64,000 bases of DNA from Candidatus Levyibacteriota bacterium (GCA_016186645.1 JACPLF010000006.1:124808-188807); one strand, 5' to 3'; positions 2,418 through 64,000 are shown, counted from the first letter of the stretch. Made by a program: numbers and translations. The notes: generated by a model not told the origin, from the letters alone.

Positions 2418-2420
2418 ACT

Positions 2421-3095: not shown

Positions 3096-3101
3096 TCTTT
3101 G

Positions 3102-3130: not shown

Positions 3131-3136
3131 ATTTAT

Positions 3137-3741: not shown

Positions 3742-3807
3742 ACAAAAAAACTAATTTAGATTAAGTTGGATTTGACAGGACTTAGGTTTTTTGCTTATTA
3801 TTAATAG

Positions 3808-30998: not shown

Positions 30999-31013
30999 TT
31001 ATGCAATACAGAT

Positions 31014-41176: not shown

Positions 41177-41228
41177 TAAATCTATGTTCACCCCGTTACA
41201 GATACGGGGAAGTTTTATTGTTTTGTTT

Positions 41229-47423: not shown

Positions 47424-47696
47424 TTGCATTATATGTTTTATATTTATGTACTAAGGAGCGTTAAAGATAAAAAACTGTATTCTGGTTATACATCTGACTT
47501 AAGATCAAGATTTAGATATCACAACCAAGGTAAAGTAGAAGTAACTAAGCATAGAAGGCCATTTAAGCTGATTTATTATGAGGCATACTTGCATCAACAA
47601 GATGCAACAGCAAGAGAGAAATTCCTTAAGACTCAATGGGGAAGAAATTTTTTGAAAAGAGTTCTTAAGAATTATTTTAAAAACTTGGACGACTAG
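47424..47696 (+). CDS. small GIY-YIG nuclease family protein
   Basis: YIYVLRS...KLYSGYTSDLRSRFRYHNQG and KLIYYEAY match the GIY-YIG core. The 3' end overlaps the tRNA by about 10 nt. Confidence 0.6.
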   Translation: MHYMFYIYVLRSVKDKKLYSGYTSDLRSRFRYHNQGKVEVTKHRRPFKLIYYEAYLHQQDATAREKFLKTQWGRNFLKRVLKNYFKNLDD

Positions 47697-47758
47697 CTCA
47701 GTGGTAGAGCGCCTCGCTCACATCGAGGAGGTCGTTGGTCCAATTCCAACGTCGTCCA
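47687..47758 (+). tRNA. tRNA-Val (anticodon CAC)
   Basis: Manual cloverleaf. Acceptor GGACGAC/GTCGTCC, D-arm GCTC-AGTGGTA-GAGC, anticodon arm CCTCG-CTCACAT-CGAGG, T-arm GTTGG-TCCAATT-CCAAC. The T-loop is atypical and there is no encoded CCA. Confidence 0.55.
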
Positions 47759-47760
47759 CT

Positions 47761-48567
47761 ATGAGTAGGTGTTTGATTTGTAAATCCAATAATAAATACC
47801 CACTTTGCTCTAAGTGTGCAAAAAAACCCTTTTTGGTTGAAAGAGCAAGACAAATTCTTGCCAGCATAAATGATTTGGAGTTCTTGAAAAAAACATATAA
47901 TTTAAGATATGCTGAAATTAAGAATTTAAATACTCCTAAATTTTGGAATAAACTGCTATTTGATACAACAAATTTACAAGCTCAGGATGGAATGACAAAA
48001 GACAGAGTAAAAACTTCTTTTAAATTCTTGTCCAGGAATGCAAAAAAGATTCTAGATATAGGAGCGGGAAACGGGTTTGTAGAAGAGTTGATTGGAAAAA
48101 ATAAAGGCATTAAGATTTATGGCAATGATATATCAAGCATTGCAGTCAGAAAATTAAAAGAAAGATTTAAAGGAGATTTCAAAAAAGAATCACTATATTC
48201 AATGAAATATCCCAAAAAATCTTTTGATAGCATTTTTATGCTTGAGGTTTTGGAACATATTGCGCCCAGCAAGGTTTTCAGCGTGCTAAAGAAAGTCAGG
48301 GAAATTTTGAGAAAGAAGGGATCTTTGATAGTTTCAATTCCGACTAATGAGGGTTTGGAAAAGAAGAGAGATAATCTCAGCGGACATTTAAGAACGTATA
48401 CGGAAAATTTAATTAGAGCGGAGCTAAAAATAGCAGGATTTAAAGTTGTAAAATTAAAAACCCTCTATGCATTTAAAAATTTTTATAATTTTAAAAAAAT
48501 CTCAGCAAAAATTCTGAGAAAAAGATGGCAGCCTAACGATATCGTAATTTTAGCAAAACCTGAATGA
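47761..48567 (+). CDS. class I SAM-dependent methyltransferase
   Basis: Motif I ILDIGAGNGF and motif post-II. Start moved to the first Met after the tRNA (the track ORF start overlaps the tRNA). Confidence 0.6.
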   Translation: MSRCLICKSNNKYPLCSKCAKKPFLVERARQILASINDLEFLKKTYNLRYAEIKNLNTPKFWNKLLFDTTNLQAQDGMTKDRVKTSFKFLSRNAKKILDIGAGNGFVEELIGKNKGIKIYGNDISSIAVRKLKERFKGDFKKESLYSMKYPKKSFDSIFMLEVLEHIAPSKVFSVLKKVREILRKKGSLIVSIPTNEGLEKKRDNLSGHLRTYTENLIRAELKIAGFKVVKLKTLYAFKNFYNFKKISAKILRKRWQPNDIVILAKPE

Positions 48568-49613
48568 AGATTTTATTTTTTTCCCGTCTATTTTATCCCC
48601 ATATTGGCGGAGTTGAGAAGCACGTTCTAGAAGTGGGCCGGCAATTAATAGAAAAAGGTCACAAGGTGACGATTATAACGGAAGATTTATCAACTAAAGA
48701 TATACCAGTATATCTTCAATCGAAAGGAAAAATTCCAAGACATGAAGTTATTAATTTAATTGAAGTTTATAGAATTCCTGTAGGGGAAAGTGACTGGTTT
48801 AGAAAGTTTAGAATTTGGAAGGAAATTTGGAAACTTAGAAATTTAATAAAAACTTCAGATGCCATCCATTGCCACGATGTATTTTTCTGGTATCTGCCTT
48901 TTCGTTTTCTATTTCCTTTTAAGAAAGTATTTGCAACATTTCATGGATACGAAAGTTATCCTTTGAAATCAAAATCTATTTTAATGCACAAGATATCTGA
49001 AAAATTGTCTAATGGCAACATTTGCATAGGCCATTTTATAAAAAAATGGTACGGAACAAAACCGAACTTTGTTGTTTATGGAGGAGTAGAAGGAGTTAAA
49101 AGTGAAAAATTAAAAATGGAAAATGGGAATTCGGCAATTTTTATTGGCAGACTGGATGAGCAGACGGGAATATTAACTTATGTTAATGCAGTTAAATTAA
49201 TAAGGAAAAAAATACCAAATTTTAAGTTTGAAATAATAGGTGACGGAAAGTATAGGAAAGAAATTGAGAAATATTTTAAGGTTTTAGGATTTCAAAAAAA
49301 AACGGAAAAATATTTTCTAGATTATAATTTTGCATTTGTTTCCAGGTATCTGTCAATTTTGGAAGCAATGGCGGCAAGAAGATTGGTATTTGCGTCTTAT
49401 GATAACCCTCTTAAAGAAGATTATCTTAGAATGGCATCCTTTTCAAAATATATTGTAATTTTTAATTCTCCTTCCGAATTAATCTCAAAAGTTTTGTTCT
49501 ATCTCAAGAACCCGGACAAAAAAGAAAAATTGGTAGAAAGTGCCTATGAATGGGTTAAAAAACAGACTTGGGAAAAAATGGCCAATATTTACCTGAAGCT
49601 TTGGAATAAATAG
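48564..49613 (+). CDS. glycosyltransferase (GT-B fold, GT4-like, divergent)
   Basis: N-terminal MKILFFSRLFYPHIGGVEKHVLEVGRQL resembles a GT4 N-domain. Weak C-terminal motif. Confidence 0.45.
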   Translation: MKILFFSRLFYPHIGGVEKHVLEVGRQLIEKGHKVTIITEDLSTKDIPVYLQSKGKIPRHEVINLIEVYRIPVGESDWFRKFRIWKEIWKLRNLIKTSDAIHCHDVFFWYLPFRFLFPFKKVFATFHGYESYPLKSKSILMHKISEKLSNGNICIGHFIKKWYGTKPNFVVYGGVEGVKSEKLKMENGNSAIFIGRLDEQTGILTYVNAVKLIRKKIPNFKFEIIGDGKYRKEIEKYFKVLGFQKKTEKYFLDYNFAFVSRYLSILEAMAARRLVFASYDNPLKEDYLRMASFSKYIVIFNSPSELISKVLFYLKNPDKKEKLVESAYEWVKKQTWEKMANIYLKLWNK

Positions 49614-51306
49614 CTAGTATTATTAAAGAAATTAGGCTTAACCACTTTGAAAAAATAATTATCGGCAAATCTACAAATTTCACCTCGACATTATAATTTC
49701 CTTCGGGAAGATCAAAACTTATAACTCCGGGAAAATCAGGATTAGAATAGTTAACAGAAACGAGTTTTTTATTGGCCTCTACTGTCCATCCCGGGAAGTA
49801 TAGAGTGTTTTCTTTGATGTTAATACTTGAAAATGCATTAATTTGGTATCGATGACTAATTGGCGTTCTCGCAGTCTCTTTGGTAGCAGCATTTCCTTGT
49901 AAAATTTCTATATTTGCTTTTGGTTTGGTTCTAAGTTGTGATTTTTTCAAATCTGCCCAAATAGGAGATGATGGTTCCAATCCGCTAATATCAGGCTTGA
50001 TGTCAAACTCCTTTTTTAGATACTCGTCTTGAATAGTTGGAATAGTGCCCCTATTGCCCCAGTTTAATATTGTGTAGGCAATTGTAAGAAAACAAAGTCC
50101 TACGATGAACCAGTTTTTGTTTATTTTTTTAGCAACAATTCCTGCAATTATAGAAACGCATAATGCTAAAATCACAAGTAAGCGAGTAGAAAACTGGGAA
50201 TATTTTAAGAAGGGAGTAACTTCCCATATAGACTTTGACATAGGGAGTATCATAAAAAATAAAATTGCGGAAATAATTAAGAAAAAAACAAGAAGATTTT
50301 TTAGTTTTTTATTAAATTTATTTTTAACAATTAAATATATTGATATCCCAATGATAAATAGTTGTGTATAGCCAATTAAGTAAGAAAGTTCACCTATGTT
50401 GCTCTGGAATAAGAATCCGAGTCTCCAGGGCGAATACAGTAATTGCGACACTTGCGGAAATAAAATTTGGGTTGGGTTTAATCCTTGTTGCGTAAATTTG
50501 GCAAGATTTACGATAGGCAGCCAGTGGAAAGACGAAATAAAAAAACCGAATAAAATTGAGATAAAATAATAAATAATATTTTTTAATTTTTTATTATTCC
50601 TAAACCAGACAAATAATCCATAAGCTAACATTATCGGCAAAAACATTAGGGAAATTGCCTGATGAGAAAGAATTAAAAGCCCAAGAGATATTGCAAGAAT
50701 AACAAACCATTTTTTGCTATTTGTCTCAATAAGTTTTTTGATGGATAATAGTATTGCCGGTAGGAATACGAAAGAGAGATTCTCTGCTATTGTTACTCTA
50801 AAGTGTAGATCCACAAAATGGTATGGCATAAAAAGGTAGAATATTGCAGCAACAAATCCGGCTTTTTTACCCAGTTCTTCTTTGACCCAAAAATACATTG
50901 TTATTCCTGAGAAAATGAAAGAGAAAGATAGCAGCATCTTAATGCTGGTTAAAAAAGAGATACCGATAGAATGGAAGATAGAGCCTATAAAGTAAGGGAG
51001 AAAATATGCGAAAAGGAAATGTGGGTCTCCGTACCCTGCATTGAATTCGGGAGTCCATCGAGGAATAAGACGATAATTTACTAATAAATTGTAGAAAGAT
51101 ATTAATCTTTTTGCATGTAAAGAGAGATCTCCGCTTTCGTATGATCCTGCTCTAAAAATGCTTACAATCGGAAGGATCGAGATCAATATTAATAAATAAA
51201 ATAAGTTGATTTTTCGTTTGAAGAGATATTTATAAACTATTAAACCCAGAAGCAGGAAGATTGATAACATTAGGTTTAAAACGACCATTTTGTAGGCTGG
51301 TAGCAT
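49555..51306 (-). CDS. large polytopic membrane protein with C-terminal extracytoplasmic domain (possible GT-C-like glycosyltransferase)
   Basis: 583 aa with more than 10 predicted TM helices, then a soluble C-terminus. No OST WWDYG motif. Confidence 0.35.
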   Translation of the reverse strand: MLPAYKMVVLNLMLSIFLLLGLIVYKYLFKRKINLFYLLILISILPIVSIFRAGSYESGDLSLHAKRLISFYNLLVNYRLIPRWTPEFNAGYGDPHFLFAYFLPYFIGSIFHSIGISFLTSIKMLLSFSFIFSGITMYFWVKEELGKKAGFVAAIFYLFMPYHFVDLHFRVTIAENLSFVFLPAILLSIKKLIETNSKKWFVILAISLGLLILSHQAISLMFLPIMLAYGLFVWFRNNKKLKNIIYYFISILFGFFISSFHWLPIVNLAKFTQQGLNPTQILFPQVSQLLYSPWRLGFLFQSNIGELSYLIGYTQLFIIGISIYLIVKNKFNKKLKNLLVFFLIISAILFFMILPMSKSIWEVTPFLKYSQFSTRLLVILALCVSIIAGIVAKKINKNWFIVGLCFLTIAYTILNWGNRGTIPTIQDEYLKKEFDIKPDISGLEPSSPIWADLKKSQLRTKPKANIEILQGNAATKETARTPISHRYQINAFSSINIKENTLYFPGWTVEANKKLVSVNYSNPDFPGVISFDLPEGNYNVEVKFVDLPIIIFSKWLSLISLIILAIYSKASGKYWPFFPKSVF

Positions 51307-51322
51307 GCTGATATAATACGAA

Positions 51323-52489
51323 TTGTTAAGCTCTAGTGCAAGTATGAAGGTGTCTTTTATAGCTACAGTTTATAACGAGGAAGCTTCTATTAAGGCGTTG
51401 TTGGATTCACTGATGAAGCAATCCCAAATGCCTGCTGAAATTATTATTTCTGATGGGGGAAGTACTGACCGTACGGTCGGTATAATTAAAGCTTACCCGG
51501 GAAAGATTAAGATAATTATAAAAAAAGGAAATAGGTCGGTGGGGAGAAATGAGGCGATTAGAAAAACGACTAACGAAATTATTGTTTGTTCTGATTCAGG
51601 TTGCATTCTTGACAAAAATTGGGTAAAAAATATAATCGAACCATTTTCTGATCCAAAAACGGATGTTGTTGCAGGATATTATGTTGGCAAACCGAATTCG
51701 GTTTTTGAAAAGTGTTTAATTCCCTATGTTTTGGTAATGCCGGATAAAATAGACGCCAATAGTTTTCTTCCTGCCAGCCGCTCTATGGCTTTTAGGAAAT
51801 CCACATGGAAAAATGCAGGAAAATTTCCTAAAGAATTTAACAACAATGAAGATTATGTTTTTGCTAAAAATTTGATGAAAATTAACGCAAAGATTGTGTT
51901 TGAAAAAAAGGCAATCGTTTACTGGAGGCCAAGAAGTAATATTAAGAATGCTTTTACAATGTTTTACCGCTTTGCAAAGGGAGATTCAGAATCTCGCATC
52001 TTTAGACCTAAAGTGATCCTAATATTTGCACGTTATATTGCTTTCCTTATTTTTACAGTTTCGTTTTTAATTTTTAAATCATACATAATACTTAATACTT
52101 TATACTTAATACTTGCTTTTTATATTCTTTGGTCAATAGCTAAAAATTATAAGTATGTAAAAGATGCTCGGGCAATAGTCTTTCTTCCTTTGATCCAATT
52201 CGTATCAGATACGGCAGTGATAGCGGGAACAGTAATAGGCTTACTAACTCAAAAATTAAAAATATTAATTGAAGGATTATTCTATATTACAATTGTATAT
52301 TCAATAATCTTATTAAATTTCAGACACTTAAGGTCTTTGTTTAGTCCGCCTAAAATTAATCAGAGTGAAATCGTAGGCTACGCCCAGTATTTTGGCTATC
52401 CCTTATATTTTGAAACAATAATTTTATTTATTTTTATATTTACTCCAATTCTAGTTTTTTTTGTTCTTAGCAAAATGAAAAAAATATAA
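51323..52489 (+). CDS. GT2 family glycosyltransferase with C-terminal TM segments (polyprenyl-phosphate sugar synthase-like)
   Basis: SFIATVYNEEASIKALLDSL, DGGSTD and DSG-type motifs, plus a C-terminal hydrophobic region. Confidence 0.6.
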   Translation: MLSSSASMKVSFIATVYNEEASIKALLDSLMKQSQMPAEIIISDGGSTDRTVGIIKAYPGKIKIIIKKGNRSVGRNEAIRKTTNEIIVCSDSGCILDKNWVKNIIEPFSDPKTDVVAGYYVGKPNSVFEKCLIPYVLVMPDKIDANSFLPASRSMAFRKSTWKNAGKFPKEFNNNEDYVFAKNLMKINAKIVFEKKAIVYWRPRSNIKNAFTMFYRFAKGDSESRIFRPKVILIFARYIAFLIFTVSFLIFKSYIILNTLYLILAFYILWSIAKNYKYVKDARAIVFLPLIQFVSDTAVIAGTVIGLLTQKLKILIEGLFYITIVYSIILLNFRHLRSLFSPPKINQSEIVGYAQYFGYPLYFETIILFIFIFTPILVFFVLSKMKKI

Positions 52490-52498
52490 AGACTAACT

Positions 52499-54037
52499 AT
52501 GTTTAAAATAATAAAAAAAGACTTTGATGTAGTAATGCTTCTTATAATTCTATCGGCACTCTATTTCAAAGACTTCTTTTTTTCTTGTTTTAACTATTTA
52601 AATTTAAGTTTTGGATCTCAAATTCCTTTGACTTGGGATTTTACCTCACTTAATAATGTACTTCCGTATAAAGACATATATTTTCCTTATGGGATTTTGT
52701 TTTATTTTAAAAGTAATATTTTCTTAGCAATAATTAATTTCTTCCTGCCTACGATTTTATTCACAGGTATTTATGTTTTTCTCAAGAAAGCATTCGTTAA
52801 TAAATTAATCGCTTTTTTTGCTTTTATCTCTTTTTATTTATTTATAAGTAAGTTTACCGGTATAGAAAATTTCTCACGTTATGGTATAGCTTTGATCATT
52901 GGTGTTCTGCTATCCTTTATTTTCTATAGATCACCTCGGTTAACCTTAAAAGCATCTTTTTTCATTGGGATATTAATAGGTGGAGTTTTCTCATTGGTTA
53001 ATGATCAAGGGCTATATATTCTCTCTTTGTTCTTTTTCTTACTTTTAATAACTCCAATCTTAAAAAGAGTCAAATTAAGCTTCAATTTTTTAATTTCCAG
53101 AATTGTTTTTAGTTTTCTAGGATTTGTAATTGGATTTTTACCGTTCTTAATATTTTTAATCTCAAACAATGCGGAAAATGGCTTTTTACTGTTCATAAAG
53201 CATCTGCCTGATTTCTCACTGTATGCGAAGACACCATTTATTCCCTTTTCTACGACTACAGATAATTTATTTACTTTTGGAAGTATCTTTATTGCTGTGG
53301 TTCTCTTGAGTTTTAAAATTTTCTTCTCTAATAAAAGATTATCACTTATTTCTTTTATGGAATTAGGTCTGGTTTTTATCCTAATCCTTCTTGAACAGAA
53401 AAATATAATTAGATCAATTGATAAGCAAATAACTTTTATCGCATTTTTTCTTTATATAATTATGTTTAACGAATTAATAAAAGACAAAGTCAATGCTACT
53501 CTTACGGTTTTATTTTATCTAATTATTTCAGGTTTGATAGTATCCGGATTCGTGCTTCATCCATTTATTAATTATAAGTTGGGTTTTAAAAGAGAATTAA
53601 AGAGTATGTTTTTCCAGGAGAATTTAGGAAACTTTTTGGTCATAAAAAACAATCTGTGTCTTGATGATAACGTTAATAAATTAATAAAGAATAAAAGCAC
53701 AGGGCTTGAGAAAGTTAAAATGGCAATTGAAAAAGCCTCTAAAGATCCTGTTGAGATATTTGATTATTTAAGCGATCCAGTGTTTTATGTTCTGTTCAAT
53801 CAAAAACCTCCTTATTATTTCACTATTTTTGAGGGAACTCCTTTATATGCGCAGGAGTCGAACGTCAAATACATAAAAGAAAACAATATTAATTATATAA
53901 TTTACAATAACGATGCTTTAAGTATTCAGGATGGAGTGCCCGATAAGGCAAGAACTAGACTTCTTTTTAAGTACGTTTTGGATAATTTTATGATTCTAGA
54001 CAAAGTTGAAAACTTTGTAATTTATAAAAAAATATAA
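52499..54037 (+). CDS. polytopic membrane protein, unknown function
   Basis: 512 aa, very hydrophobic, lysine- and phenylalanine-rich. Confidence 0.35.
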   Translation: MFKIIKKDFDVVMLLIILSALYFKDFFFSCFNYLNLSFGSQIPLTWDFTSLNNVLPYKDIYFPYGILFYFKSNIFLAIINFFLPTILFTGIYVFLKKAFVNKLIAFFAFISFYLFISKFTGIENFSRYGIALIIGVLLSFIFYRSPRLTLKASFFIGILIGGVFSLVNDQGLYILSLFFFLLLITPILKRVKLSFNFLISRIVFSFLGFVIGFLPFLIFLISNNAENGFLLFIKHLPDFSLYAKTPFIPFSTTTDNLFTFGSIFIAVVLLSFKIFFSNKRLSLISFMELGLVFILILLEQKNIIRSIDKQITFIAFFLYIIMFNELIKDKVNATLTVLFYLIISGLIVSGFVLHPFINYKLGFKRELKSMFFQENLGNFLVIKNNLCLDDNVNKLIKNKSTGLEKVKMAIEKASKDPVEIFDYLSDPVFYVLFNQKPPYYFTIFEGTPLYAQESNVKYIKENNINYIIYNNDALSIQDGVPDKARTRLLFKYVLDNFMILDKVENFVIYKKI

Positions 54038-55656
54038 TGTTTAAGAAAATTATTGATTATATTTTACGGAATAAAATAGTTGCAGGAATAGTTATCATTT
54101 ATTCGTTGGCAATGATTAGTGTTATCGACTGGGGGATTCCAAATATCAGTCATCCATATAATTATCATATGGACGAATGGCATCAGCTTCAGTCTATCAG
54201 GGCAATAATTGAGCATGGATCACCAAATATAAGCGGAGCTGCCAATGGAACTGTTTTCCAATTTTTGCTATCAGGCATTTATCTTATTCCTTTTATTTTA
54301 TTTAAAATAGTTGATCCTTTTTCAATAAAATCGGGAGCTGAGTCATTGTTAATGCAAAAAGAGCTTTTTGAGATTCTAAGACTAAACACTTTAATATTTG
54401 GAGCTTTATCAATACTTGCTCTGTCTAGCCTTATGAAGAAATATTTCAAAACAAATCCGGTTCTCACTCTTGTTTTTTTTACCATAACTCCTGTATGGTT
54501 GGCTTTGAGTAACTATTTCAAATATGATATTGCACTGACTTTTTGGATAATTTCTTCTTTATTTTTTCTTCTAAAATATGGTACAAATACCACTCTCAAA
54601 AATTATATTATTACAGGGATTTTTTGTGCTCTTGCTATTGCCACAAAAATAAGCGCAATCCCGCTTCTTGTAATTTATTTATTATCATTTTTTTATTTTA
54701 ATCTGAATAGAAAAAAAGAATATAGGCATCTGCTTTTTGGCTTATTGGTCTTCGTATTAATATTCTTATCTCTGGGAATACCGGATCTAATTCTGCAAAG
54801 GGGAGACTACAGGGAATATTTGTACTCAAACTTAGTAAGGGATCCAATGATTTTTGATAATTTTATATTGAAGCATAATCCATGGTGGGTTTACTTAATT
54901 AAAAAAATAATTCCTTTGAATTTCGGATATATTTTTTCAGGAATAACTGCATTGGCATTGATATATTGGAGTATAAAATTAAATATAAGAAAATTTAAAA
55001 ATGAGACTTTTGTATTTATCTCAATGATTATGTTTATGATTAGCTTAGTTCCCCTGGAGCTAGGAGCAAATGGGAACAGATTGCTTGTGATCCTTCCGTT
55101 TTTTGCAATTCTCTCAAGTTTGTTTATTCAAAGACTTATCAATAGTTTTCCTTCTTTAAAACACCGCATATATGCTTTGTTAGCTTTTTTATTTATTTTT
55201 CAGTTTTATCAATCTTTTGCAATGATATCCATAAAGTGGGAAAAAGACATTAGAGAATTATTTGCTGTATGGTTAGTTGAAAATATTCAAAAAGGAAGTA
55301 CTATCGGTATTCAAAATATTCCGATATATCAATTGCTTCCCGATATAATAGTCAAAGAATTTTACTTAAAAGATGAGAATAATGTTTTTAAATATCAGAT
55401 AGTTGATGAGAGGGGTCAGCTTCCGGGCATTGTTGTAATAACAAATAAAGAATTTGATTTAAATCATTTGAAAAAATCACCCAAGAAGTCTTTGTTGGCA
55501 AGATTAGATAATGAAGGATATAGAAAATTAAAGGAGTTCAAGCCGCCTGAAATTTTGTACAAAACAATGGGCGATGAGTTTGACTTCTATTCTTCCGGAC
55601 TTGTGCCTATTTGGACAATATCGATATACGAACAAGATAAAAATCCTCAAAATTGA
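54037..55656 (+). CDS. GT-C fold membrane glycosyltransferase-like protein (GT39/ArnT-like)
   Basis: Polytopic N-terminal domain plus soluble C-terminal domain. The architecture resembles PMT/ArnT enzymes. Motif support is weak. Confidence 0.4.
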   Translation: MFKKIIDYILRNKIVAGIVIIYSLAMISVIDWGIPNISHPYNYHMDEWHQLQSIRAIIEHGSPNISGAANGTVFQFLLSGIYLIPFILFKIVDPFSIKSGAESLLMQKELFEILRLNTLIFGALSILALSSLMKKYFKTNPVLTLVFFTITPVWLALSNYFKYDIALTFWIISSLFFLLKYGTNTTLKNYIITGIFCALAIATKISAIPLLVIYLLSFFYFNLNRKKEYRHLLFGLLVFVLIFLSLGIPDLILQRGDYREYLYSNLVRDPMIFDNFILKHNPWWVYLIKKIIPLNFGYIFSGITALALIYWSIKLNIRKFKNETFVFISMIMFMISLVPLELGANGNRLLVILPFFAILSSLFIQRLINSFPSLKHRIYALLAFLFIFQFYQSFAMISIKWEKDIRELFAVWLVENIQKGSTIGIQNIPIYQLLPDIIVKEFYLKDENNVFKYQIVDERGQLPGIVVITNKEFDLNHLKKSPKKSLLARLDNEGYRKLKEFKPPEILYKTMGDEFDFYSSGLVPIWTISIYEQDKNPQN

Positions 55657-55673
55657 TAAAATAAGGTATCTTT

Positions 55674-56894
55674 ATGGGCTATTCAAAGCAAGCATTTATT
55701 GGAATCTCGTGGATGAGTGCTTTTAGGGGGATTTCCCGAGTAATTGCCATAGGAAGAAGTGTTCTATTGGCTAGAATTCTGACTCCTGCTCAATTCGGAG
55801 TTTTTGGAATTGCCTCCATCATGCTTTCATTTCTCGAAATTCTGACAGAGACAGGAATTAATATATTCCTAATTCAGCAGAAGGAAAATATTGATAAGTT
55901 TGTCAGCTCTGCTTGGATAGTATCTATACTTCGGGGGATACTAATCTCTTTAACAATAATCATCACAGCTCCTATTGTTGTTAATTTCTTTAATATGCAG
56001 GATTTGTATAGATTTTTATATTTAATAAGCGTGGTTCCCCTAATAAGAGGTTTTATAAATCCGTCGATTGTTAAGTATCAAAAAGATCTTGAATTTAGAA
56101 AAGAATTTTGGCTTAGAATATCAGTTTATTTATTCGACTCAGCTACTTCTGTAATATTGGCGCTAATATTAACTGATGCAATAAGTTTTGTTTGGGGACT
56201 TATTGCGGGAGCTATTTTAGAGGTAATTTTGTCTTTCGTATTATTCAGTCCTTTGCCGCTTTTGAAATTTGAATTAAATTTAGTGAAACAAATAGTAAAT
56301 AAAGGGAAATGGGTAACCGCATATGGGATCTTTAATTATATTGCCCAGCAAGGAGACACTATTGCCATAGGTAAGCTACTTGGAGCTGCACCTACGGGTA
56401 TTTATCAAATGGGATATAGACTTTCAACTTTACCAATTAGTGAAGTATCAGACGTAGTTAACAGGGTTGTTTTTCCGGTTTACTCAAAAATATCAGATGA
56501 TAAACATAGATTATTGCGGGCATTTAAAAGAACTCTGGTAACAATTTCTCTTCCGGTTTCAATTTTAAGTATAGTTATATTTTTTCTTCCTAAGGAATTT
56601 TTCGATTTGTTGCTTGGTCCTAAATGGGCAGAGGTGACTTCGGTAATAAAGATACTGGTAATTTATGGAATGTTTAGGGCAATTTCAGGAGTTTCTTCCT
56701 CGCTCTTTTTGTCCCTTGGAAAACAAAACTTCGTGGCTGGAATGACTTTTATCAGATTTTTCGTTCTTGCCGCAACTATTGTTCCATTAACAAGTACCTA
56801 TGGAATAATAGGCTCCAGCTTATCAGCATTGCTGTCAGTACTCCTTGAACTTCCTCTTATTGGTTACTTTATTTTGAAAATATTTAAATCATGA
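55674..56894 (+). CDS. Wzx-like oligosaccharide flippase (MOP superfamily)
   Basis: 12-TM-like hydrophobic profile. N-terminal GISRVIAIGRSVLLARILTPAQFGVFGIA is typical of polysaccharide-biosynthesis flippases. Confidence 0.5.
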   Translation: MGYSKQAFIGISWMSAFRGISRVIAIGRSVLLARILTPAQFGVFGIASIMLSFLEILTETGINIFLIQQKENIDKFVSSAWIVSILRGILISLTIIITAPIVVNFFNMQDLYRFLYLISVVPLIRGFINPSIVKYQKDLEFRKEFWLRISVYLFDSATSVILALILTDAISFVWGLIAGAILEVILSFVLFSPLPLLKFELNLVKQIVNKGKWVTAYGIFNYIAQQGDTIAIGKLLGAAPTGIYQMGYRLSTLPISEVSDVVNRVVFPVYSKISDDKHRLLRAFKRTLVTISLPVSILSIVIFFLPKEFFDLLLGPKWAEVTSVIKILVIYGMFRAISGVSSSLFLSLGKQNFVAGMTFIRFFVLAATIVPLTSTYGIIGSSLSALLSVLLELPLIGYFILKIFKS

Positions 56895-57985
56895 AAATTG
56901 CGATATTCCACGAACTAGATTTTGGCGGGGCTAGGCGTACAGTTGAAGAGTTCGCGAAAAGATTAAATAAAATTTTGGACGTAGATTTATATTATGTCGA
57001 TAATAAAGAGGACAAAAATGCAAAAAAAATTTCAAGAAGAGATTTTTTCTATCCATTTTATCCAAAAACTTGGAAAGGGAATAATTGGAAGACGAGGTTA
57101 TATAAAGACACATTAGAGCTTTATAGACTTTATAATCTGCATAAGAAGATTGCTAAAGATATCGAATCAAAAGAATATGATTACATCTTTGTTCATCCCT
57201 CCAAATTCACTCAAGCTCCTTTTCTACTTAGATTTCTGAAAAATAAATGCATTTATTTTTGTCAGGAACCCTTGAGGATAATTTACGACAAAAATTTATC
57301 CGATTTATCTTTTGTTAGGTTTCATAAAAAACTTTATGAGTTTATTATTCGCAAAATTAGAAAAAGAATTGATTTAAAAAATCTTAACAGCGCAAAGATG
57401 ATATTAGCTAATTCAAAGTTCTCAAAAGAATCTATAGAAAAAGCTTACGGGAAGAAAGTTGTAATATGTTATCTAGGAGTAGATACGAACCTTTTTAAAC
57501 CTCTAAACTTAAATAAAACAATAGACGTTCTTTTTATAGGCAATAAAGATAATGGATACGATTTGCTGGATAAGCTATCTAAGCATTTCAACAATTGCAT
57601 CAAGGCTCGTGCAGTATTCAGAGGAAATTCCAGAGTAAGCCACACAGATGAGGAATTAATTGAAATTTACAATAAGTCAAAAGTTTTAGTTGCTCTAAAT
57701 CGCAATGAGCCTTTTGGGTTAATTCCTCTTGAGGCAATGGCCTGCGGAGTTCCGGTTATTGCGGTAGGGGAGGGTGGATATAGCGAATCGGTTGTTAACG
57801 ATAAGACAGGATTTCTAATCCCAAGAAATCCCAGCAAGCTTTATGAAAAAATTAATGAGATTATTAGCAATGAGAAATTAAGAAAAGAAATGAGTAAAAA
57901 TGCTCGCGATCATGTTGTAAAAAACTGGTCTTGGGATAAAAGTATCAAAAATTTTTTGGAAATAATAAAATATGAAAAAAGATAA
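56891..57985 (+). CDS. glycosyltransferase family 4
   Basis: EPFGLIPLEAMACGVPVIAVGEGGYSESVVNDKTGFL is a strong GT4 C-terminal motif. Confidence 0.8.
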   Translation: MKIAIFHELDFGGARRTVEEFAKRLNKILDVDLYYVDNKEDKNAKKISRRDFFYPFYPKTWKGNNWKTRLYKDTLELYRLYNLHKKIAKDIESKEYDYIFVHPSKFTQAPFLLRFLKNKCIYFCQEPLRIIYDKNLSDLSFVRFHKKLYEFIIRKIRKRIDLKNLNSAKMILANSKFSKESIEKAYGKKVVICYLGVDTNLFKPLNLNKTIDVLFIGNKDNGYDLLDKLSKHFNNCIKARAVFRGNSRVSHTDEELIEIYNKSKVLVALNRNEPFGLIPLEAMACGVPVIAVGEGGYSESVVNDKTGFLIPRNPSKLYEKINEIISNEKLRKEMSKNARDHVVKNWSWDKSIKNFLEIIKYEKR

Positions 57986-60185
57986 GGTGCAAATTTCAAT
58001 TATAATTGTTAATTATAAAGTAGAAAAAGAATTAATAGATTGCATATCATCAATTATAAATTCAAAGCCTAAAACCTCATTTGAGATAATTGTTGCGGAC
58101 AATAGCGAGAATAACGATCTCAGGTTGAAATTAAAAATTTTCCCTCAAGTAAAATATGTAAAAAGCAAAGGAAACATAGGGTTTGGAGCGGGAAATAATT
58201 TGGGAGCAAAATCTGCAAAAGGAGATGTCTTATTCTTTTTAAATCCAGATACGATTATTGAAAAAAACGCAATAGATGATTTGTTTAATTTTATAAACAA
58301 GAATTCAAAAGCAGGAATGGTTGCTCCATTACTCCTTGACCTTTCGGGAAATTCCTATCCAAATCAAGGAAGCGATCAATATGATTTTAAAAGTGCAATT
58401 GTGACGAGCTCTTTTATAAACAGACTTTTTCCTAAAAACCCGATATCCAAAAAGTTCTTTCACAAAGATTGGGTAAAAAAAGAAATTGAAGAATTTGATG
58501 TTGTTCCAGGAACAGCTTTTATGATCAAAAAAAGTATTTTTGAAAAATCCGGAATGTATGATGAAAAATTTTTCTTATATTTTGAAGAATACGATTTGGC
58601 AAATAGAATTAAAAAAGCAGGTTTTAAAAACTATATAGTCCCGCAAGCAAAAGTGATGCACATTTGGGAAGCAAGCGCTAAAAAAAGAAAGGATATAAAT
58701 AGAATTTTTTCAGAAAGCCGTAATCACTTTTTTAAAAAAAATTATGGGAGGCTATTTGCATTTATGGTTAATCTATTTTCAAATATTGGTAAATATGAGT
58801 TGCTGCTTGGATTAACAGTTGCTACCTCGGTTTATCTATGTTTCTCTAAAATAGCAGAATTAATGCCTTTCATAGGTGATCAGGGTTGGTTTTACCTTTC
58901 GGCAAGAGACATGATAGTAAATGGTCAGATTCCGTTTGTAGGTATAGCCTCAAGCCATCCTTGGCTGCATCAGGGGGCATTCTGGACATATTTGCTTGCT
59001 CCATTCCTGTGGTTGTTTAACTTTAACCCTGTTGCAGGCGCATATTTGTCTATTATTTTGGGAATTTTGTCTACAATCGGGATTTATATCCTGGGCGTAA
59101 CTCTTTTTTCAAAAAGAGCCGGGATAATAGCATCTATTCTTTATACAACTTCTCCTTTGGCTGTTTATTATATGAGATTTCCATATCATACAAGTCCAAT
59201 TCCTTTATTCATTATTATGTTAATCTTTTCTTTGTATAAAATTACCCAGAACAAAATGAGATATTTTCCGCTAACAATATTTTTATTGGCGATTCTTTAC
59301 AATTTTGAAATATCAACGGTCATCCTATGGGGAGTACTATTGAGCATATTGACATATAAATTTTTTAAACAGAGAAAAGTATTTAACAAAATATTTAACA
59401 AAAAAATTATGCTATGGTCTTTTTTGGCGCTGATCACTCCTCTATTGCCCATGATATTGTACGACGTAAGAAATGGCTTTCCTCAGACTCTCAAATTTAT
59501 GGCTTGGGTTTTGTATAAAGGAGCATCTTTATTTGGTTTTAATACTCAGCATGATTTTTCAATAAATAAAATTCTTATAATGTTTGATTTTCTTTTTGTT
59601 AATTTTAAAAAATTAATTTTTGCTCAAAATAATCTAATATCTCTATTGATTCTAGTTGTAGTAGTGAGTTGGGGCGTTTATGTTCTTTTTAAAAAGAATG
59701 ATGTTTCATATAAATTAATTCCTTTATTATTTTTTATTCCTCTGATTTTTATTGTTTTAAATCAAGTTCCTTCAGATGCATATCTTCCAACGTTCTTTCC
59801 AGTTGTAATTCTAATTTTTGCCACTTTTTTAGATTTTGTTATGAATAAGAGGGTAATGATTCTTCCAATCTTGATTTTTCTGACATTTTTAATTGCCGGC
59901 AATATTAATTTTATGTTAAAAAATGATTTTTTATTCGATAAATCAAGTAAGTTATTCACTTTAGAAAAGCGAATCCATGCAGTCCACAGAATATTGAATA
60001 TAGCGAATAATAAAGACTATAATTTGAAAGGAAGGGGTCCAGGAAGTGAGCATGAAAGTTTCACAATGAATTATGAATATCTAGCATGGCGGATGGGGCA
60101 TGCCCCCTCAAAAGAAAATGAATCAACAAAAATATATATATCCGAATCTGAACATGGGATTAAAATTGAAACAAAAAATAAATGA
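57972..60185 (+). CDS. GT2 glycosyltransferase fused to a C-terminal polytopic membrane (GT-C-like) domain
   Basis: N-terminal ISIIIVNYKVEKELIDCISSI and DNSEND GT2 motifs. About 450 aa of multi-TM C-terminus. Confidence 0.6.
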   Translation: MKKDKVQISIIIVNYKVEKELIDCISSIINSKPKTSFEIIVADNSENNDLRLKLKIFPQVKYVKSKGNIGFGAGNNLGAKSAKGDVLFFLNPDTIIEKNAIDDLFNFINKNSKAGMVAPLLLDLSGNSYPNQGSDQYDFKSAIVTSSFINRLFPKNPISKKFFHKDWVKKEIEEFDVVPGTAFMIKKSIFEKSGMYDEKFFLYFEEYDLANRIKKAGFKNYIVPQAKVMHIWEASAKKRKDINRIFSESRNHFFKKNYGRLFAFMVNLFSNIGKYELLLGLTVATSVYLCFSKIAELMPFIGDQGWFYLSARDMIVNGQIPFVGIASSHPWLHQGAFWTYLLAPFLWLFNFNPVAGAYLSIILGILSTIGIYILGVTLFSKRAGIIASILYTTSPLAVYYMRFPYHTSPIPLFIIMLIFSLYKITQNKMRYFPLTIFLLAILYNFEISTVILWGVLLSILTYKFFKQRKVFNKIFNKKIMLWSFLALITPLLPMILYDVRNGFPQTLKFMAWVLYKGASLFGFNTQHDFSINKILIMFDFLFVNFKKLIFAQNNLISLLILVVVVSWGVYVLFKKNDVSYKLIPLLFFIPLIFIVLNQVPSDAYLPTFFPVVILIFATFLDFVMNKRVMILPILIFLTFLIAGNINFMLKNDFLFDKSSKLFTLEKRIHAVHRILNIANNKDYNLKGRGPGSEHESFTMNYEYLAWRMGHAPSKENESTKIYISESEHGIKIETKNK

Positions 60186-60934
60186 TTAGTGTTGTAATTT
60201 TAACAAAAAACGAAGAACGAAATATAAAAAAATGTTTGGAGTCTGTCAAATGGTGCGATGAAATAATCATTGTTGACGATAATTCCTCTGATAGAACGCC
60301 GGAAATAGCTAAGAGATACAAAATTTCATTATTTTCAAATCCTCTTAATGGAGATTTCTCGAGTGCACGTAATTTAGGTTTATCGAAGGCAAAAAATGAG
60401 TGGGTGCTTTTTGTTGATAGTGATGAGGTTGTTTCAGACGCATTAGCCTATGAGATATCAAATGCGATTGGGCTAAAAGATCAAAATTTGAGAAATTTCA
60501 ATGGATTTTATATAAGAAGGTCTGATTTTATATGGGGAAAGCAGCTTAAGTATGGAGAAACAGGATATATAAAGCTATTGAGACTTGGAAGAAAAGGTTT
60601 TGGGCAGTGGCAAGGAAAAGCTCACGAACGATGGGAAATAGAAAGACCTGTTGGGAAATTAGTAAATCCTTTATTTCATTTTCCTCACGATACTTTGGAA
60701 GAATTTCTTAGAGAAATTAATTTCTATACGGATATTAGAGCAGGAGAATTGAAAGATAACAACAAAAGAATATTTTTTTGGGATATACTTTTTTATCCGT
60801 TAGGAAAATTTGTAGTTAACTATATTTTCAAAAGAGGGTTTATGGATGGGATACAAGGGCTGGTTTTTGCAATATCTATGTCTTTCCACTCGTTTCTGGT
60901 AAGAGGAAAATTATGGCTGCAAAAGGAAAAATAA
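60182..60934 (+). CDS. GT2 family glycosyltransferase
   Basis: ISVVILTKNEERNIKKCLESV, IIVDDNSSD and DSDE motifs. Confidence 0.7.
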   Translation: MISVVILTKNEERNIKKCLESVKWCDEIIIVDDNSSDRTPEIAKRYKISLFSNPLNGDFSSARNLGLSKAKNEWVLFVDSDEVVSDALAYEISNAIGLKDQNLRNFNGFYIRRSDFIWGKQLKYGETGYIKLLRLGRKGFGQWQGKAHERWEIERPVGKLVNPLFHFPHDTLEEFLREINFYTDIRAGELKDNNKRIFFWDILFYPLGKFVVNYIFKRGFMDGIQGLVFAISMSFHSFLVRGKLWLQKEK

Positions 60935-62439
60935 TTAAATTCCTAATAGTTTTTTTAGTTTTTTCGTTAGCTATTTTTCTTAGGCTCTGGAATCTTAATC
61001 AAATGGGTAGAACTTGGGATGAGCCTTTCTATGTGGATCAGGGTTACAAAATAGTAGATGCGATAAAGAAAGGAAACTTTGATAACAAAATATTATATAC
61101 AGATCCCGATCCCCCAGTGTTCTCTAAATACCTTTACGGTTTGGCAGAGCATTTAAATATAGGAAAAGCTGCTCCCTGCGGCGGTGAATTCTGTTATTAT
61201 GATTTTACTTCGAGCAGATTAATCTCGGTGTTATTTTCCTCTTTAACTGTTTTATTGGTGATTCTGATAGGATGGCAATATGTATCTTTTTTTGTAGGTG
61301 TTACTGCCGGAGTTGTTTTTGCAACACTTCCAATTTCCCTTGGTTTGTCTCAGCTTGTGACTGTTGAAAGTATTCTTGCTTTCTTTTTTACTGCTTGTAC
61401 CTACTCATTCCTGCGCTTATTGAAAACTTTTTCTATTAAAAATGTGGTAATCTGTGGTATTTTGTTGGGTTTGGCTATTGCTACTAAATACACAAATATT
61501 ATGTTAGTTCCTCTTTTTATTTTAATTTATGTAGTGTGGAGCAGGTTTAATAAGAAAATAAAAAATAAAAAAACTTTAGCAAAGAAGCTAATTTTTATTA
61601 TCTTGGTAGCATTTGCGACCCTGTTTTTTATTTGGCCGTTTCCCTGGTTTCATATGGATTATGTTTGGAAGTGGGAGCAGGCTACCCGCTTCTCAGAAGT
61701 TGCAAGTCATCCGGTTCCCGAAGTTTTCTTCGGGCGCCTTATGCCGGTTCCTATTTTTTACTATTTTGTTTATTTCCTTATAACCACCCCATTCTTAATT
61801 TTAGTATTGTTTCTTGCAGGTCTTAAAAATATTTCAGAAAAGAAAAAGTGGATACTATATGTTATTGTGATTTGGTTTCTGCTGCCTTTCTTGCAGTCGT
61901 TTCTAAATATGAGACAGCATGGAGTGCGCTACGTAATACAAATTTATGTACCATTATCTCTAATTTCGGCAATTGGATTTAATTTTTTGTTAGAAAAATT
62001 TAAAAGTCTAAAGTATAAGTACTTATTTTTAATTGCAGTAGCAATTTATATGTTTATTATTTTGAAAAATATAACCCCTTATTATTTGGATTACTTTAAC
62101 ATTGTAGTTGGAGGAGCTAAGGGAGTTTATGAAAGTAGATCTTTTCAGATGGGTTGGTGGGGACAAGGCATTAGAGAGGCGGCCGGTTATATTGTTAAAA
62201 ATGCAGAAAAGGGAGCAAATGTTGGAATTGCCATCTCTCCATCGACAGTCATGCCGGAACTAAAAAATTACAATGTAAATAAATATGAAGAAAATAAAGA
62301 ATATGATTACGTTATTGTTAATTACTACAATATTATAAGGGAAGGTTTCAATGACTCTAAGATAAAAGAGAGATATGTTCCTGTTTATACAGTTTGGGCA
62401 GATGGAGCACCTCTTGTAGTTGTATATAAGCACAAATGA
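60913..62439 (+). CDS. GT39/GT83-like (PMT/ArnT-type) membrane glycosyltransferase
   Basis: First-loop DE motif (GRTWDEPFYVDQG) after TM1. Polytopic, with a C-terminal soluble domain. Confidence 0.55.
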   Translation: MAAKGKIIKFLIVFLVFSLAIFLRLWNLNQMGRTWDEPFYVDQGYKIVDAIKKGNFDNKILYTDPDPPVFSKYLYGLAEHLNIGKAAPCGGEFCYYDFTSSRLISVLFSSLTVLLVILIGWQYVSFFVGVTAGVVFATLPISLGLSQLVTVESILAFFFTACTYSFLRLLKTFSIKNVVICGILLGLAIATKYTNIMLVPLFILIYVVWSRFNKKIKNKKTLAKKLIFIILVAFATLFFIWPFPWFHMDYVWKWEQATRFSEVASHPVPEVFFGRLMPVPIFYYFVYFLITTPFLILVLFLAGLKNISEKKKWILYVIVIWFLLPFLQSFLNMRQHGVRYVIQIYVPLSLISAIGFNFLLEKFKSLKYKYLFLIAVAIYMFIILKNITPYYLDYFNIVVGGAKGVYESRSFQMGWWGQGIREAAGYIVKNAEKGANVGIAISPSTVMPELKNYNVNKYEENKEYDYVIVNYYNIIREGFNDSKIKERYVPVYTVWADGAPLVVVYKHK

Positions 62440-63656
62440 ACACAAAATCTATAAAGAAGTGTCGCTCCTGTTTCTCTGGAAAATTGATAAATATACTCTC
62501 TCTGGGAGAGCAATATTTATCTGATTTCTCCGAAGGAAAGCTCATGCCTAGCAAGTCACCTCTGGATTTGATGCTTTGTCGCAATTGCAATTTGGTTCAG
62601 CTCAAGCATACGGTTTACCCGAGTCTTTTATATACAGAACGTTATGGATATAAGTCCGGAATAAATAATACAATGAAAGAAGAATTACAAAAAATCGTAA
62701 TTAGCGTACTGAAAAAGATCAATAACAATGAAGAAATTACAGCGCTTGATATTGGAGCAAATGATGGAACTTTATTAAGCTATTATCCTAAAAACGTTTT
62801 TAAAATTGCATTTGAGCCTATTGAGAAATTTGCCAAAGAAAGCAAAATGCACGCAAATGTTGTTATTAATGACTTTTTTGATTCTAATATATATATGCAT
62901 AAATTGAAAAGGCAAAAAGCAAATATAATAACTGCTATTTCTTGCTTTTACGACATAGATAAACCTAACGATTTTATAGAAGGTATTAAAAAAATACTAC
63001 AAAAGGATGGTGTATTTGTAATTCAGCAGAACTATTTGGTTGGAATGATAATAAATAATGCTTTTGATAATATTGTACACGAGCATCTGGAATATTATTC
63101 GATTTTATCATTGGAAAATTTACTATCGCGTCATGGATTGGAAATTTTCCACGTCGAAGAGAGCTCGATAAATGGGGGAAGTTTTATAACGTTCGTCGCT
63201 CATAAAAATTCTAGATCGATTCAGGAGTCTGTTTTTAGATGGAGAGAAAATGAAAAGGCTCTAAAACTTGATAGAGTCAAAATTTATAAAGATTTTGCAA
63301 GAAGAGTTAATAAAAATAAAAAAGACCTTTACTTACTTATAGAGAAACTAGACAAAGAAGGTAAAAATGTATATGTTTATGGGGCTTCTACAAGAGGAAA
63401 TACTCTATTGCAGTTTTATCAATTGAATAACAGCCTCATTAAGGCTGCTGTGGAGCGAAATCCTGAAAAATGGGGTAAGAATATATCATCTGTAGGCATT
63501 CCAATTATTTCAGAAGAACAGGCAAGAAAACAAAAGCCCGACTACATGTTGGTTTTGCCTTGGTTTTTTAAAGAAGAATTTCTAGAAAGAGAAAAAAGAT
63601 ATCTTGAAAGCGGAGGACATTTTATTTTTCCTTTACCCAAAATAGAGATAATTTAA
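62436..63656 (+). CDS. SAM-dependent methyltransferase with N-terminal Cys4 zinc ribbon (sugar C-methyltransferase-like architecture)
   Basis: CRSC...CRNC zinc-binding pairs and a methyltransferase core (ALDIGANDGTL). The domain order resembles Methyltransf_13/14 C-methyltransferases. Confidence 0.5.
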   Translation: MNTKSIKKCRSCFSGKLINILSLGEQYLSDFSEGKLMPSKSPLDLMLCRNCNLVQLKHTVYPSLLYTERYGYKSGINNTMKEELQKIVISVLKKINNNEEITALDIGANDGTLLSYYPKNVFKIAFEPIEKFAKESKMHANVVINDFFDSNIYMHKLKRQKANIITAISCFYDIDKPNDFIEGIKKILQKDGVFVIQQNYLVGMIINNAFDNIVHEHLEYYSILSLENLLSRHGLEIFHVEESSINGGSFITFVAHKNSRSIQESVFRWRENEKALKLDRVKIYKDFARRVNKNKKDLYLLIEKLDKEGKNVYVYGASTRGNTLLQFYQLNNSLIKAAVERNPEKWGKNISSVGIPIISEEQARKQKPDYMLVLPWFFKEEFLEREKRYLESGGHFIFPLPKIEII

Positions 63657-63660: not shown

Positions 63661-64000
63661 TTATTTTTTCTCCAAGACAAAAAAATAACTCATTCCCAAT
63701 ACGGCTTTTGAGAGTTTGATAATTTTAAAATCTTTAAATAATTTTTGTAACTCGTATTTTTTGAAGTTTTTGTGAAAGGGTTCTCCCCGAGGACAAGTGC
63801 TAGAAAGAAATCTTAGGAGCCAGATGGGAGATATGGCTGGTACACTGCCAATAAGAATTCCGCCTTTTTTTAGAACTCTTAATAATTCCGTGACTGTAGG
63901 TTTTGGATCCGGTTGATGTTCAATAACTTCTGTTGAGAATATTGTAGAAAACGTTTCTTTTTTGAATGGAAGTTTTTCTATGTCTGCTAGAATAACTTTG
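63661..64000 (-). CDS. 3' portion of a class I SAM-dependent methyltransferase (partial, start beyond the window edge)
   Basis: Reverse-strand translation ...KVILADIEKLPFKKETFSTIFSTEVIEHQPDPKPTVTELLRVLKKGGILIGSVP... matches Methyltransf_11 motifs. Stop at 63661-63663. Confidence 0.55.
   Translation of the reverse strand, partial: KVILADIEKLPFKKETFSTIFSTEVIEHQPDPKPTVTELLRVLKKGGILIGSVPAISPIWLLRFLSSTCPRGEPFHKNFKKYELQKLFKDFKIIKLSKAVLGMSYFFVLEKK

Follow-up and report, generated by a model that had tools for sequence, protein, structure and literature searches.

The window analysed here, a stretch of 64,000 nucleotides from a Candidatus Levyibacteriota bacterium (GCA_016186645.1, JACPLF010000006.1:124808-188807), contains a dense run of glycosyltransferase (GT), flippase and methyltransferase genes at positions 47761-63656, the region under study. 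This region probably belongs to a vertically inherited surface-glycan locus of variable content, in which a Wzx/Wzy-type route is combined with many extracytoplasmic transferases of the GT-C class. The site of the locus is fixed, with LepB and tRNA-Val on one side and a conserved Wzy_C / Ig-like gene pair on the other. The host is an uncultivated, ultra-small Candidatus Levybacteria bacterium of the candidate phyla radiation (CPR, Patescibacteria). All coordinates are positions in the window.

Gene content and extent of the locus

Twelve tightly packed genes fill 47761-63656, 11 on the plus strand and one (49555-51306) on the minus strand. Start and stop codons of neighbours overlap in most of them, and the overlaps throughout 54037-63656 indicate one operon. 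The downstream part was read from a longer contig, L001, which was found by exact-protein match and shows 0 mismatches to the window across the shared 11.5 kb. On this contig the locus extends about 6 kb beyond the window end, to about window-equivalent 70027, so that it comprises 22.3 kb and 17 genes (g01-g17) in total. The housekeeping genes pyrE, pyrF, pyrD and atpC lie 3' of it, where the GC content is back to 36.7%.

An initial annotation, made from the sequence alone, had counted 13 genes and closed the cluster at 63656; the count is 12, and five more locus genes follow on the identical contig. Its gene labels, including a Wzx-type flippase, a Cys4 methyltransferase and the tRNA-Val at the left edge, agreed almost gene for gene with Pfam and with ARAGORN. 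The family labels of the locus proteins rest on Pfam, used as a proxy for CAZy families. SAM stands for S-adenosylmethionine, TM for transmembrane and aa for amino acids in the following list.

47687-47759, plus strand: tRNA-Val(cac), identified by ARAGORN, the only tRNA in the window
47761-48567, plus strand: g01, SAM methyltransferase (Pfam Methyltransf_23/11/25)
48564-49613, plus strand: g02, GT4 of GT-B type (Glyco_transf_4 plus Glycos_transf_1)
49555-51306, minus strand: g03, GT-C-class membrane protein (PTPS_related/PMT_2)
51323-52489, plus strand: g04, GT2 with C-terminal TM helices (Pfam GT2)
52499-54037, plus strand: g05, membrane protein with predicted GT-C fold, without Pfam match
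54037-55656, plus strand: g06, PMT_2 protein (ArnT/PMT-like GT-C; PMT_2 37.4 bits)
55674-56894, plus strand: g07, MOP-superfamily (Wzx-type) flippase (Polysacc_synt_3 211.6 bits)
56891-57985, plus strand: g08, GT4 (Glycos_transf_1 89 bits)
57972-60185, plus strand: g09, GT2::PMT_2 fusion, 737 aa (GT2 64.8 bits, PMT_2 31.1 bits)
60182-60934, plus strand: g10, GT2, 250 aa (Glycos_transf_2 85.6 bits)
60913-62439, plus strand: g11, PMT_2 GT-C (PMT_2 46.8 bits)
62436-63656, plus strand: g12, Cys4 methyltransferase (Methyltransf_13 plus Methyltransf_14, 160.7 bits)
63661-64000 (3' part, cut by the window end; completed from L001), minus strand: g13, SAM methyltransferase, 208 aa
Beyond the window, on L001, minus strand: g14, YfhO protein, 726 aa (Pfam)
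Beyond the window, on L001: g15, PMT_2 protein, 528 aa (Pfam)
Beyond the window, on L001: g16, Wzy_C protein, 407 aa (Wzy_C 74.8 bits)
Beyond the window, on L001, minus strand: g17, TM-anchored protein, 233 aa, with two Glucodextran_B/Ig-like domains

Conservation of the site and variation of the content among relatives

Relatives were collected with the ParB protein encoded at 45904-46731 as query against a single genome of each species. This gave 80 loci, which, where labels are trustworthy, come from Candidatus Levybacteria/Levyibacteriota and a few Curtissbacteria, Gottesmanbacteria and Microgenomates. The order class-I aminoacyl-tRNA synthetase (taken as ValRS), RodA, L21, L27, ParB, LepB (minus strand) is common to the loci with sufficient contig, and after LepB most relatives carry homologues of g02, g03, g04, g07, g10, g16 and g17.

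Locus content was counted in the 39 related loci whose sequence continues for 9 kb or more past LepB. Of these species, 37 have homologous glycan genes there and two have none. A g02-type GT4, present in 33 of the 39 loci, is the first gene conserved most widely. At least one GT-C-like open reading frame (ORF) was present in 27 loci, a GT2 gene with TM helices in 19 and a Wzx gene in 13. A minimal locus with the order GT4, GT2 with TM helices, Wzx, GT2, Wzy_C, Ig-like (minus strand) and atpC (minus strand) was found in two relatives (L079, L080), and the same locus with one or two additional GT2 ORFs in three others (L024, L029, L052). This minimal form defines the conserved core, and the GT-C and methyltransferase genes are the variable part.

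In L084 and L085 the gene order is that of the window except for g12, with proteins 54-84% identical and a flanking PyrE 80% identical. L005, whose ParB identity (89%) equals theirs, has a different arrangement, and its GT-C proteins are just 38-42% identical. The locus had been described as rapidly evolving or horizontally acquired. The first description is acceptable in the sense that gene content differs between related species; the second is contradicted by the synteny, as the site carries homologues in 37 of 39 relatives and L084 is collinear bar g12.

A number of GTDB entries labelled 'uncultured Gammaproteobacteria bacterium' (binchicken, SRP co-assembly bins; L005, L011-L014 and many more) showed Levybacteria synteny and a ParB 57-89% identical to that of the window. 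These labels look wrong.

Base composition, tRNA-Val and the GIY-YIG gene

The GC content is 31.4% over 47761-63656 versus 37.6% upstream. The lowest 2-kb stretch has 27.5%, and g05 (27.4%) is the only gene under 30%, the level to which the whole region had been said to drop. GC at codon position 1 was 0.372 in the cluster and 0.472 in core genes (p 1e-6), at position 2 it was 0.297 and 0.356 (p 1e-5), and at position 3 it was 0.278 and 0.308 (p 0.01). When the expected GC of each gene was calculated from its amino-acid sequence and core-gene codon usage, amino-acid composition alone predicted about 5 of the 6.2 GC points of the drop, and observed minus expected GC was -1.0 point. The correlation of relative synonymous codon usage between cluster and core was 0.96, compared with 0.975 between two halves of the core. 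The locus proteins contain much F, I, L, K, N and Y; the low GC thus reflects this residue content under native codon usage and not a foreign origin. Among the relatives, GC after LepB lay below GC before it in 41 of 49 loci (means 35.8% versus 38.6%; Wilcoxon p = 8e-9). The atypical composition noted initially therefore stands as far as GC is concerned, while codon usage is native and the low GC is a feature of the whole clade.

In most Levybacteria loci tRNA-Val(cac) lies 55-190 nt after LepB, and it is therefore a conserved neighbour and not an insertion landmark. In the window this distance is 395 nt because an additional ORF intervenes:

47424-47696, plus strand: stand-alone GIY-YIG ORF, 90 aa, TTG start (Pfam 56.6 bits)

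This ORF, already listed in the initial annotation, is real; it lies outside the glycan locus, between LepB and tRNA-Val, and has no homologue at the same position in any of the 80 related loci. A 22-nt segment of the tRNA 3' end, searched as a candidate att repeat with up to 3 mismatches, occurred as a single copy in the window and was absent from L001, and Pfam revealed no integrase or transposase domain in any of the 17 locus genes. Absence of att repeat and integrase, native codon usage and clade-wide low GC together refute a recent horizontal acquisition.

Two further details were observed at this site. The 3' end of the GIY-YIG ORF overlaps the tRNA-Val by 10 nt. In one relative (L009, 8400-11400) two tRNA-Val(cac) copies lie 2.9 kb apart; judged by eye, the interval contains a methyltransferase-like ORF, a g05-like gene broken into two ORFs and no obvious integrase.

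GT-C-fold membrane proteins

Pfam placed g03, g06, the C-terminal domain of g09, g11 and g15 above the PMT_2 gathering score; g03 also matches PTPS_related, and g14 matches YfhO. Together with the predicted fold of g05, this makes five GT-C-fold proteins in the window, instead of the three recognized initially, and seven in the whole locus. According to hydropathy maps they have 9-12 TM segments, the domain in g09 about 8, and most carry acidic motifs in the first external loop and a large external C-terminal domain. In g03, with about 10 TM helices, a 156-residue extracytoplasmic loop separates the last two helices, and in relatives the gene is frequently divergent from the GT2 gene with TM helices.

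The first-loop motifs are HMDEWHQ in g06, TWDEPFYVDQG in g11 (W-D-E after TM helix 1) and GFDALWYH in g15. An Asp-Glu motif of the GT39 type is accordingly present in the first external loop of g11 (TWDEPFY) and of g06 (HMDEWHQ). The fusion protein g09 consists of a cytoplasmic GT2 domain (residues 1-276) joined to a PMT_2-type GT-C domain, an architecture kept in at least 120 full-length homologues of 44-71% identity. Its motif GDQGWFYLSARD follows the first TM helix in the first loop, and D303 and W306 in this motif are invariant. No window protein matches the PMT domain PF02366, the window matches being to PF13231 (PMT_2) only; the g11 orthologue in L084 (54% identity) does match PF02366. 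A sequence search of the PDB with g11 gave no match at E<=1, the solved Pmt1, Pmt2 and Pmt4 included.

The g05 protein gave no match in Pfam, NCBIfam or PDB by sequence and profile searches, and hhalign showed no relation of its family to g06 or to g11. It is assigned to the GT-C fold solely through its predicted structure, of which AftA is the second-best structural match. Homologues formed 68 clusters in a word-indexed search; a full HMMER scan returned 998 representatives at E<=1e-3 and 235 at E<=1e-30. None of nine family members checked against Pfam had any match. The longer members were checked for a GT2 domain at the N-terminus, and they gave no Pfam match at all. A GT-C family of about 1000 representatives outside every domain library is a lead in itself.

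GT2 and GT4 glycosyltransferases

The most conserved protein of the locus is g04, with 58-73% identity to most of the family members listed. It has a GT-A domain followed by about five TM or interface helices. Its closest sequence matches are TarS, TarP and GalT1, and its family profile gave E-values of 4e-13 for TarS, 4e-6 for DPMS, 5e-4 for GtrB and 4e-3 for ArnC. A predicted model (pLDDT 89) compared with Foldseek was nearer to hyaluronan synthase of Chlorella virus (TMq 0.54-0.58) and to PcManGT (0.49) than to DPMS, ArnC or GtrB. In layout g04 is thus a synthase-like GT2 embedded in the membrane, and it may plausibly have a lipid-directed activity. The GT2 domain of g09 matches chondroitin synthase (9e-18) and ppGalNAc-transferases end to end, and GtrB at E=0.02. 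The third GT2, g10, is soluble, with 0 TM segments by hydropathy; its closest PDB matches are GmaR (2e-16) and SunS-like proteins, and in the minimal loci of relatives it adjoins Wzy_C.

By sequence, TarS, TarP, chondroitin synthase and GmaR are therefore closer relatives of the three GT2 domains than GtrB, DPMS or ArnC are. The initial annotation had taken these GT2 enzymes for polyprenyl-phosphate sugar synthases. This was not demonstrated for any of the three, all of which are poor matches to that type.

Flippase, Wzy_C / Ig-like pair and methyltransferases

With 211.6 bits against a cut-off of 23, the Polysacc_synt_3 match of g07 is clear; in NCBIfam its matches to a MOP flippase (163 bits) and TuaB (141 bits) each stayed below the cut-off. 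The Wzy_C match of g16 fits polymerase, ligase and O-oligosaccharyltransferase roles alike, and its closest NCBIfam entries, 'putative O-glycosylation ligase' and RfaL, each score far below their cut-offs. The Wzy_C / Ig-like pair g16-g17 (L001 15684-17592, window-equivalent 68119-70027) is the part of the locus conserved most widely and reaches Curtissbacteria (L082). The Ig-like protein g17 weakly matches the NCBIfam CPR pilus protein PamR (30 bits, cut-off 300). A scan of g17 for Ser/Thr-rich or Ala/Pro/Ser low-complexity stretches revealed only a short conserved linker.

The first methyltransferase, g01, carries a CxxC...CxxC motif at its N-terminus and has an orthologue 74% identical in L084. 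In g12, PF08421 (the N-terminal Cys4 zinc site), PF13489 and PF08484 (Methyltransf_14, C-terminal) were identified. The protein has a full-length PDB match to the D-mycarose 3-C-methyltransferase 4rv9 (1e-50, residues 5-405) and also matches TcaB9 and KijD1, with E-values ranging from 1e-38 to 1e-50. By these matches g12 is a member of the NDP-hexose (nucleoside diphosphate hexose) 3-C-methyltransferase family and an accessory gene. It is the sole gene absent from the otherwise collinear L084 and occurs at other positions and on the opposite strand in L012, L013 and L032; it thus behaves as a mobile accessory gene inside the locus.

Proposed pathway and alternatives

From the observed gene families, folds, positional conservation, content variation and native codon usage we infer a pathway with its enzymatic steps, donor lipids and acceptor. 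The GT4 and GT2 enzymes would build a lipid-linked oligosaccharide at the cytoplasmic face, primed probably by the Bac_transf phosphoglycosyl transferase whose gene lies 45 kb upstream. The Wzx-type MOP flippase would flip this oligosaccharide, and Wzy_C would then polymerise or ligate it, as members of these families do. The seven GT-C-fold enzymes, five of them in the window, may add sugars at the outer face from polyprenyl-phosphate-linked donors. A 3-C-methyl branched sugar would be supplied by the enzyme of the TylC3/TcaB9 family, and methyl groups may be added to the glycan by two or three further SAM methyltransferases. That the region is a surface-glycan or glycoconjugate locus, as first proposed, is supported by the gene families, and several GT-C-class enzymes do adjoin GT2 genes.

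In the window no candidate for the priming enzyme was seen other than the product of the Bac_transf gene, which belongs to a second, small glycan gene group at 229-5769:

229-1338: GT4, flanking the Bac_transf gene
1353-2417: ManC-like nucleotidyltransferase, flanking the Bac_transf gene
2421-3095, plus strand: Bac_transf monotopic phosphoglycosyl transferase, 224 aa (Pfam 208 bits)
3808-5769: DUF4012 protein, flanking the Bac_transf gene

Several points weigh against the pathway as proposed. The Bac_transf gene lies 45 kb away, and its connection to the locus is a supposition. No donor synthase of the GtrB/DPM1/ArnC type is demonstrable among the GT2 enzymes of the locus, and no GtrA-type flippase was matched among the locus genes and ten further window ORFs, which leaves the monosaccharide-lipid donors of seven GT-C enzymes unexplained. 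A MATE/MOP flippase serves as lipid-linked monosaccharide flippase in another system (PMC11127046). The scanned window ORFs included no genes of the RmlA/RmlB type, from whose products the C-methyltransferase would receive its substrate. In NCBIfam no locus protein scored above a curated or equivalog cut-off, and so specific enzyme names, sugar identities and linkages are not assigned. As acceptor, a wall polymer, a lipid and a protein are all compatible with the data, which do not distinguish polymer from protein.

We consider it possible, if rather unlikely, that the locus serves mainly protein O-glycosylation, with the PMT-like GT-C enzymes mannosylating Ser/Thr of secreted proteins and Wzy_C acting as a PglL-like O-oligosaccharyltransferase; targets would possibly be the adjacent Ig-like surface protein, pilins or an S-layer protein. 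The PMT_2 matches, the DE-type first-loop motifs and the PF02366 match of the g11 orthologue agree with such a role, but PMT_2 is a broad ArnT/PMT-like family and g11 remained without a match at E<=1 to the solved Pmt1, Pmt2 and Pmt4. Wzy_C spans ligases as well as PglL-type enzymes, as the two closest NCBIfam entries of g16 illustrate, and PglL homologues commonly adjoin their target proteins (PMC3643930), which would suit the pairing of Wzy_C with the Ig-like protein, conserved out to Curtissbacteria. This Ig-like protein, however, has no Ser/Thr-rich or Ala/Pro/Ser stretch beyond its short linker. Glycosylation of proteins by GtrB plus GT-C systems is known from streptococci (PMC12041528).

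Three independent GT2/GT-C modules are an unlikely explanation. According to this scheme g04, the N-terminal domain of g09 and g10 make polyprenyl-phosphate monosaccharides, which the adjacent GT-C enzymes (g05/g06 for g04, the C-terminal domain for g09, and g11 for g10) transfer outside, as in GtrB/Gtr, CsbB/YfhO and ArnC/ArnT. The GT2 and GT-C genes are indeed adjacent or fused, at least 120 homologues retain the fusion, g04 combines a GT-A domain with C-terminal TM helices in the way such synthases do, and characterised GT-C enzymes are all established to need lipid-phosphate-linked donors (PMC8035078, PMC11127046). The GT2 domains themselves fit this less well, however: g10 has no TM helix, GmaR and SunS are its closest solved relatives, and it pairs with Wzy_C and not with a GT-C gene in the minimal loci; the g09 domain matches chondroitin synthase at 9e-18 and GtrB only at E=0.02; and g04 is nearer to TarS by profile (4e-13 versus 4e-6 for DPMS and 5e-4 for GtrB) and to hyaluronan synthase and PcManGT by model. 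The GtrA-type flippase expected of such modules was likewise not found in the ORFs scanned.

Stepwise synthesis of a lipid- or wall-anchored polymer outside the membrane by the GT-C enzymes, comparable to that of mycobacterial lipomannan, lipoarabinomannan and arabinogalactan (PimE, Mpt, Emb, Aft), is quite improbable. Seven GT-C genes, far above the single GT-C of the classic three-component module, and the structural match of g05 to AftA would fit, as would the PIM-like glycolipids proposed for Saccharibacteria from gene content (PMC6031116). However, Wzx and Wzy_C belong to the conserved core and the GT-C genes are variable, so that decoration fits better than backbone synthesis, and no donor pathway of the decaprenyl-phosphate-arabinose or PPM type was identified. 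A more far-reaching version strikes us as remote: a Levybacteria glycoconjugate assembled largely outside the membrane by the GT-C battery, including the Pfam-dark family of g05 and a bifunctional GT2::GT-C enzyme acting on both membrane faces, with Wzy_C transferring the product onto the Ig-like protein or pilins. If true, the pathway would yield a protein- or lipid-anchored glycan by a mechanism that differs from those of the Gtr, Wzy and Pmt schemes in their classic form.

Highly improbable, finally, is a horizontally acquired island integrated at the tRNA-Val and marked by the GIY-YIG gene and low GC: a GC content 6 points under that upstream, the tRNA at the left edge, the variation in gene content among species and the duplicated tRNA-Val within the L009 locus would suit it, but tRNA-Val is found after LepB in most of the class, the same site is occupied in 37 of 39 relatives with L084 collinear except for g12, att repeat and integrase or transposase domains are absent from the sequences searched, codon usage is native with the GC deficit sitting at codon positions 1 and 2, the lower GC is clade-wide (41 of 49 relatives), and the GIY-YIG gene is no part of the locus, from which the tRNA separates it.

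Comparison with known systems

The vertically inherited Wzx/Wzy-type locus that we favour resembles O-antigen, capsule and teichuronic-acid (tua) loci in its MOP/Wzx flippase, its Wzy_C protein and its several GT4 and GT2 enzymes, and further in its fixed chromosomal site, its species-variable content and a GC content below that of the rest of the genome. Best matches of locus proteins in NCBIfam, although weak, include TuaB, TuaC and TuaG. In contrast to such loci, it includes no priming transferase and no chain-length regulator, its genes for nucleotide-sugar synthesis are limited to the C-methyltransferase, seven GT-C genes are embedded, and the host is a CPR bacterium without known outer membrane.

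Also among the closest known are the three-component systems GtrA/GtrB/Gtr(type), CsbB/GtcA/YfhO, GtlA/GtlB, ArnC/ArnT and the pentofuranose systems (PMC5836110, PMC8035078, PMC11127046). They share with the locus GT-C proteins (PMT_2, YfhO, PTPS_related) encoded beside GT2 genes and a flippase gene in the same operon. They differ in that the GT2 enzymes here stand apart from GtrB, DPMS and ArnC in sequence and in fold, no GtrA-family protein was matched among the ORFs scanned, there are seven GT-C proteins and not one, and one of these is fused to a GT2.

With protein O-mannosylation (Ppm1/Pmt, GT39) and PglL-type systems the locus has in common PMT_2, the DE-type first-loop motif and a Wzy_C gene beside a conserved surface protein. 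Unlike there, the window proteins match neither PF02366 nor a solved PMT, and no target protein and no Ppm1-type synthase were identified. The similarity of g12 to TylC3, TcaB9 and KijD1 extends over the full length (1e-38 to 1e-50) and includes the Cys4 site and the Methyltransf_14 domain; the known enzymes, however, act in antibiotic deoxysugar pathways, whereas g12 is part of a surface-glycan operon, and a 4,6-dehydratase was not seen in this window. A literature search found no paper on such loci in CPR bacteria.

Significance

Environmental CPR bacteria live attached to other cells, and we know of no experimental work on their surface glycans. The complete or near-complete genomes of the relatives are about 0.76-1.6 Mb in size, and this genome devotes 22 kb to one glycan locus. 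The seven GT-C genes and the variation between species suggest that the glycan is a major, selected surface feature, with a role for example in host attachment or phage evasion. The locus is of an ordinary kind in an unusual organism; it stands out by the density of GT-C genes, the Pfam-dark GT-C family and the GT2::GT-C fusion. The conserved fusion and the conserved Wzy_C / Ig-like pair are further leads.

Other observations in the window

The class-I aminoacyl-tRNA synthetase upstream of RodA (41184-44180; compared across L004-L083) showed a bimodal distribution, with 51-63% or 28-41% identity at equal ParB identity; for example, it is 59% in L004 and 35% in L005, with ParB 89% identical in both. 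This may reflect xenologous replacement, or the gene at this position may encode another synthetase in some relatives. Two adjacent very large genes were observed at 27144-34136, the first encoding a protein of 1284 aa with an AAA_5 (MoxR/dynein-like) domain and the second a protein of 1040 aa with transglutaminase-core and VWA domains. SEDS-family (FtsW/RodA) genes occur twice, at 23092-24156 and 44177-45253; one lies within the dcw cluster beside MraY and MurG, and the other upstream of L21/L27.

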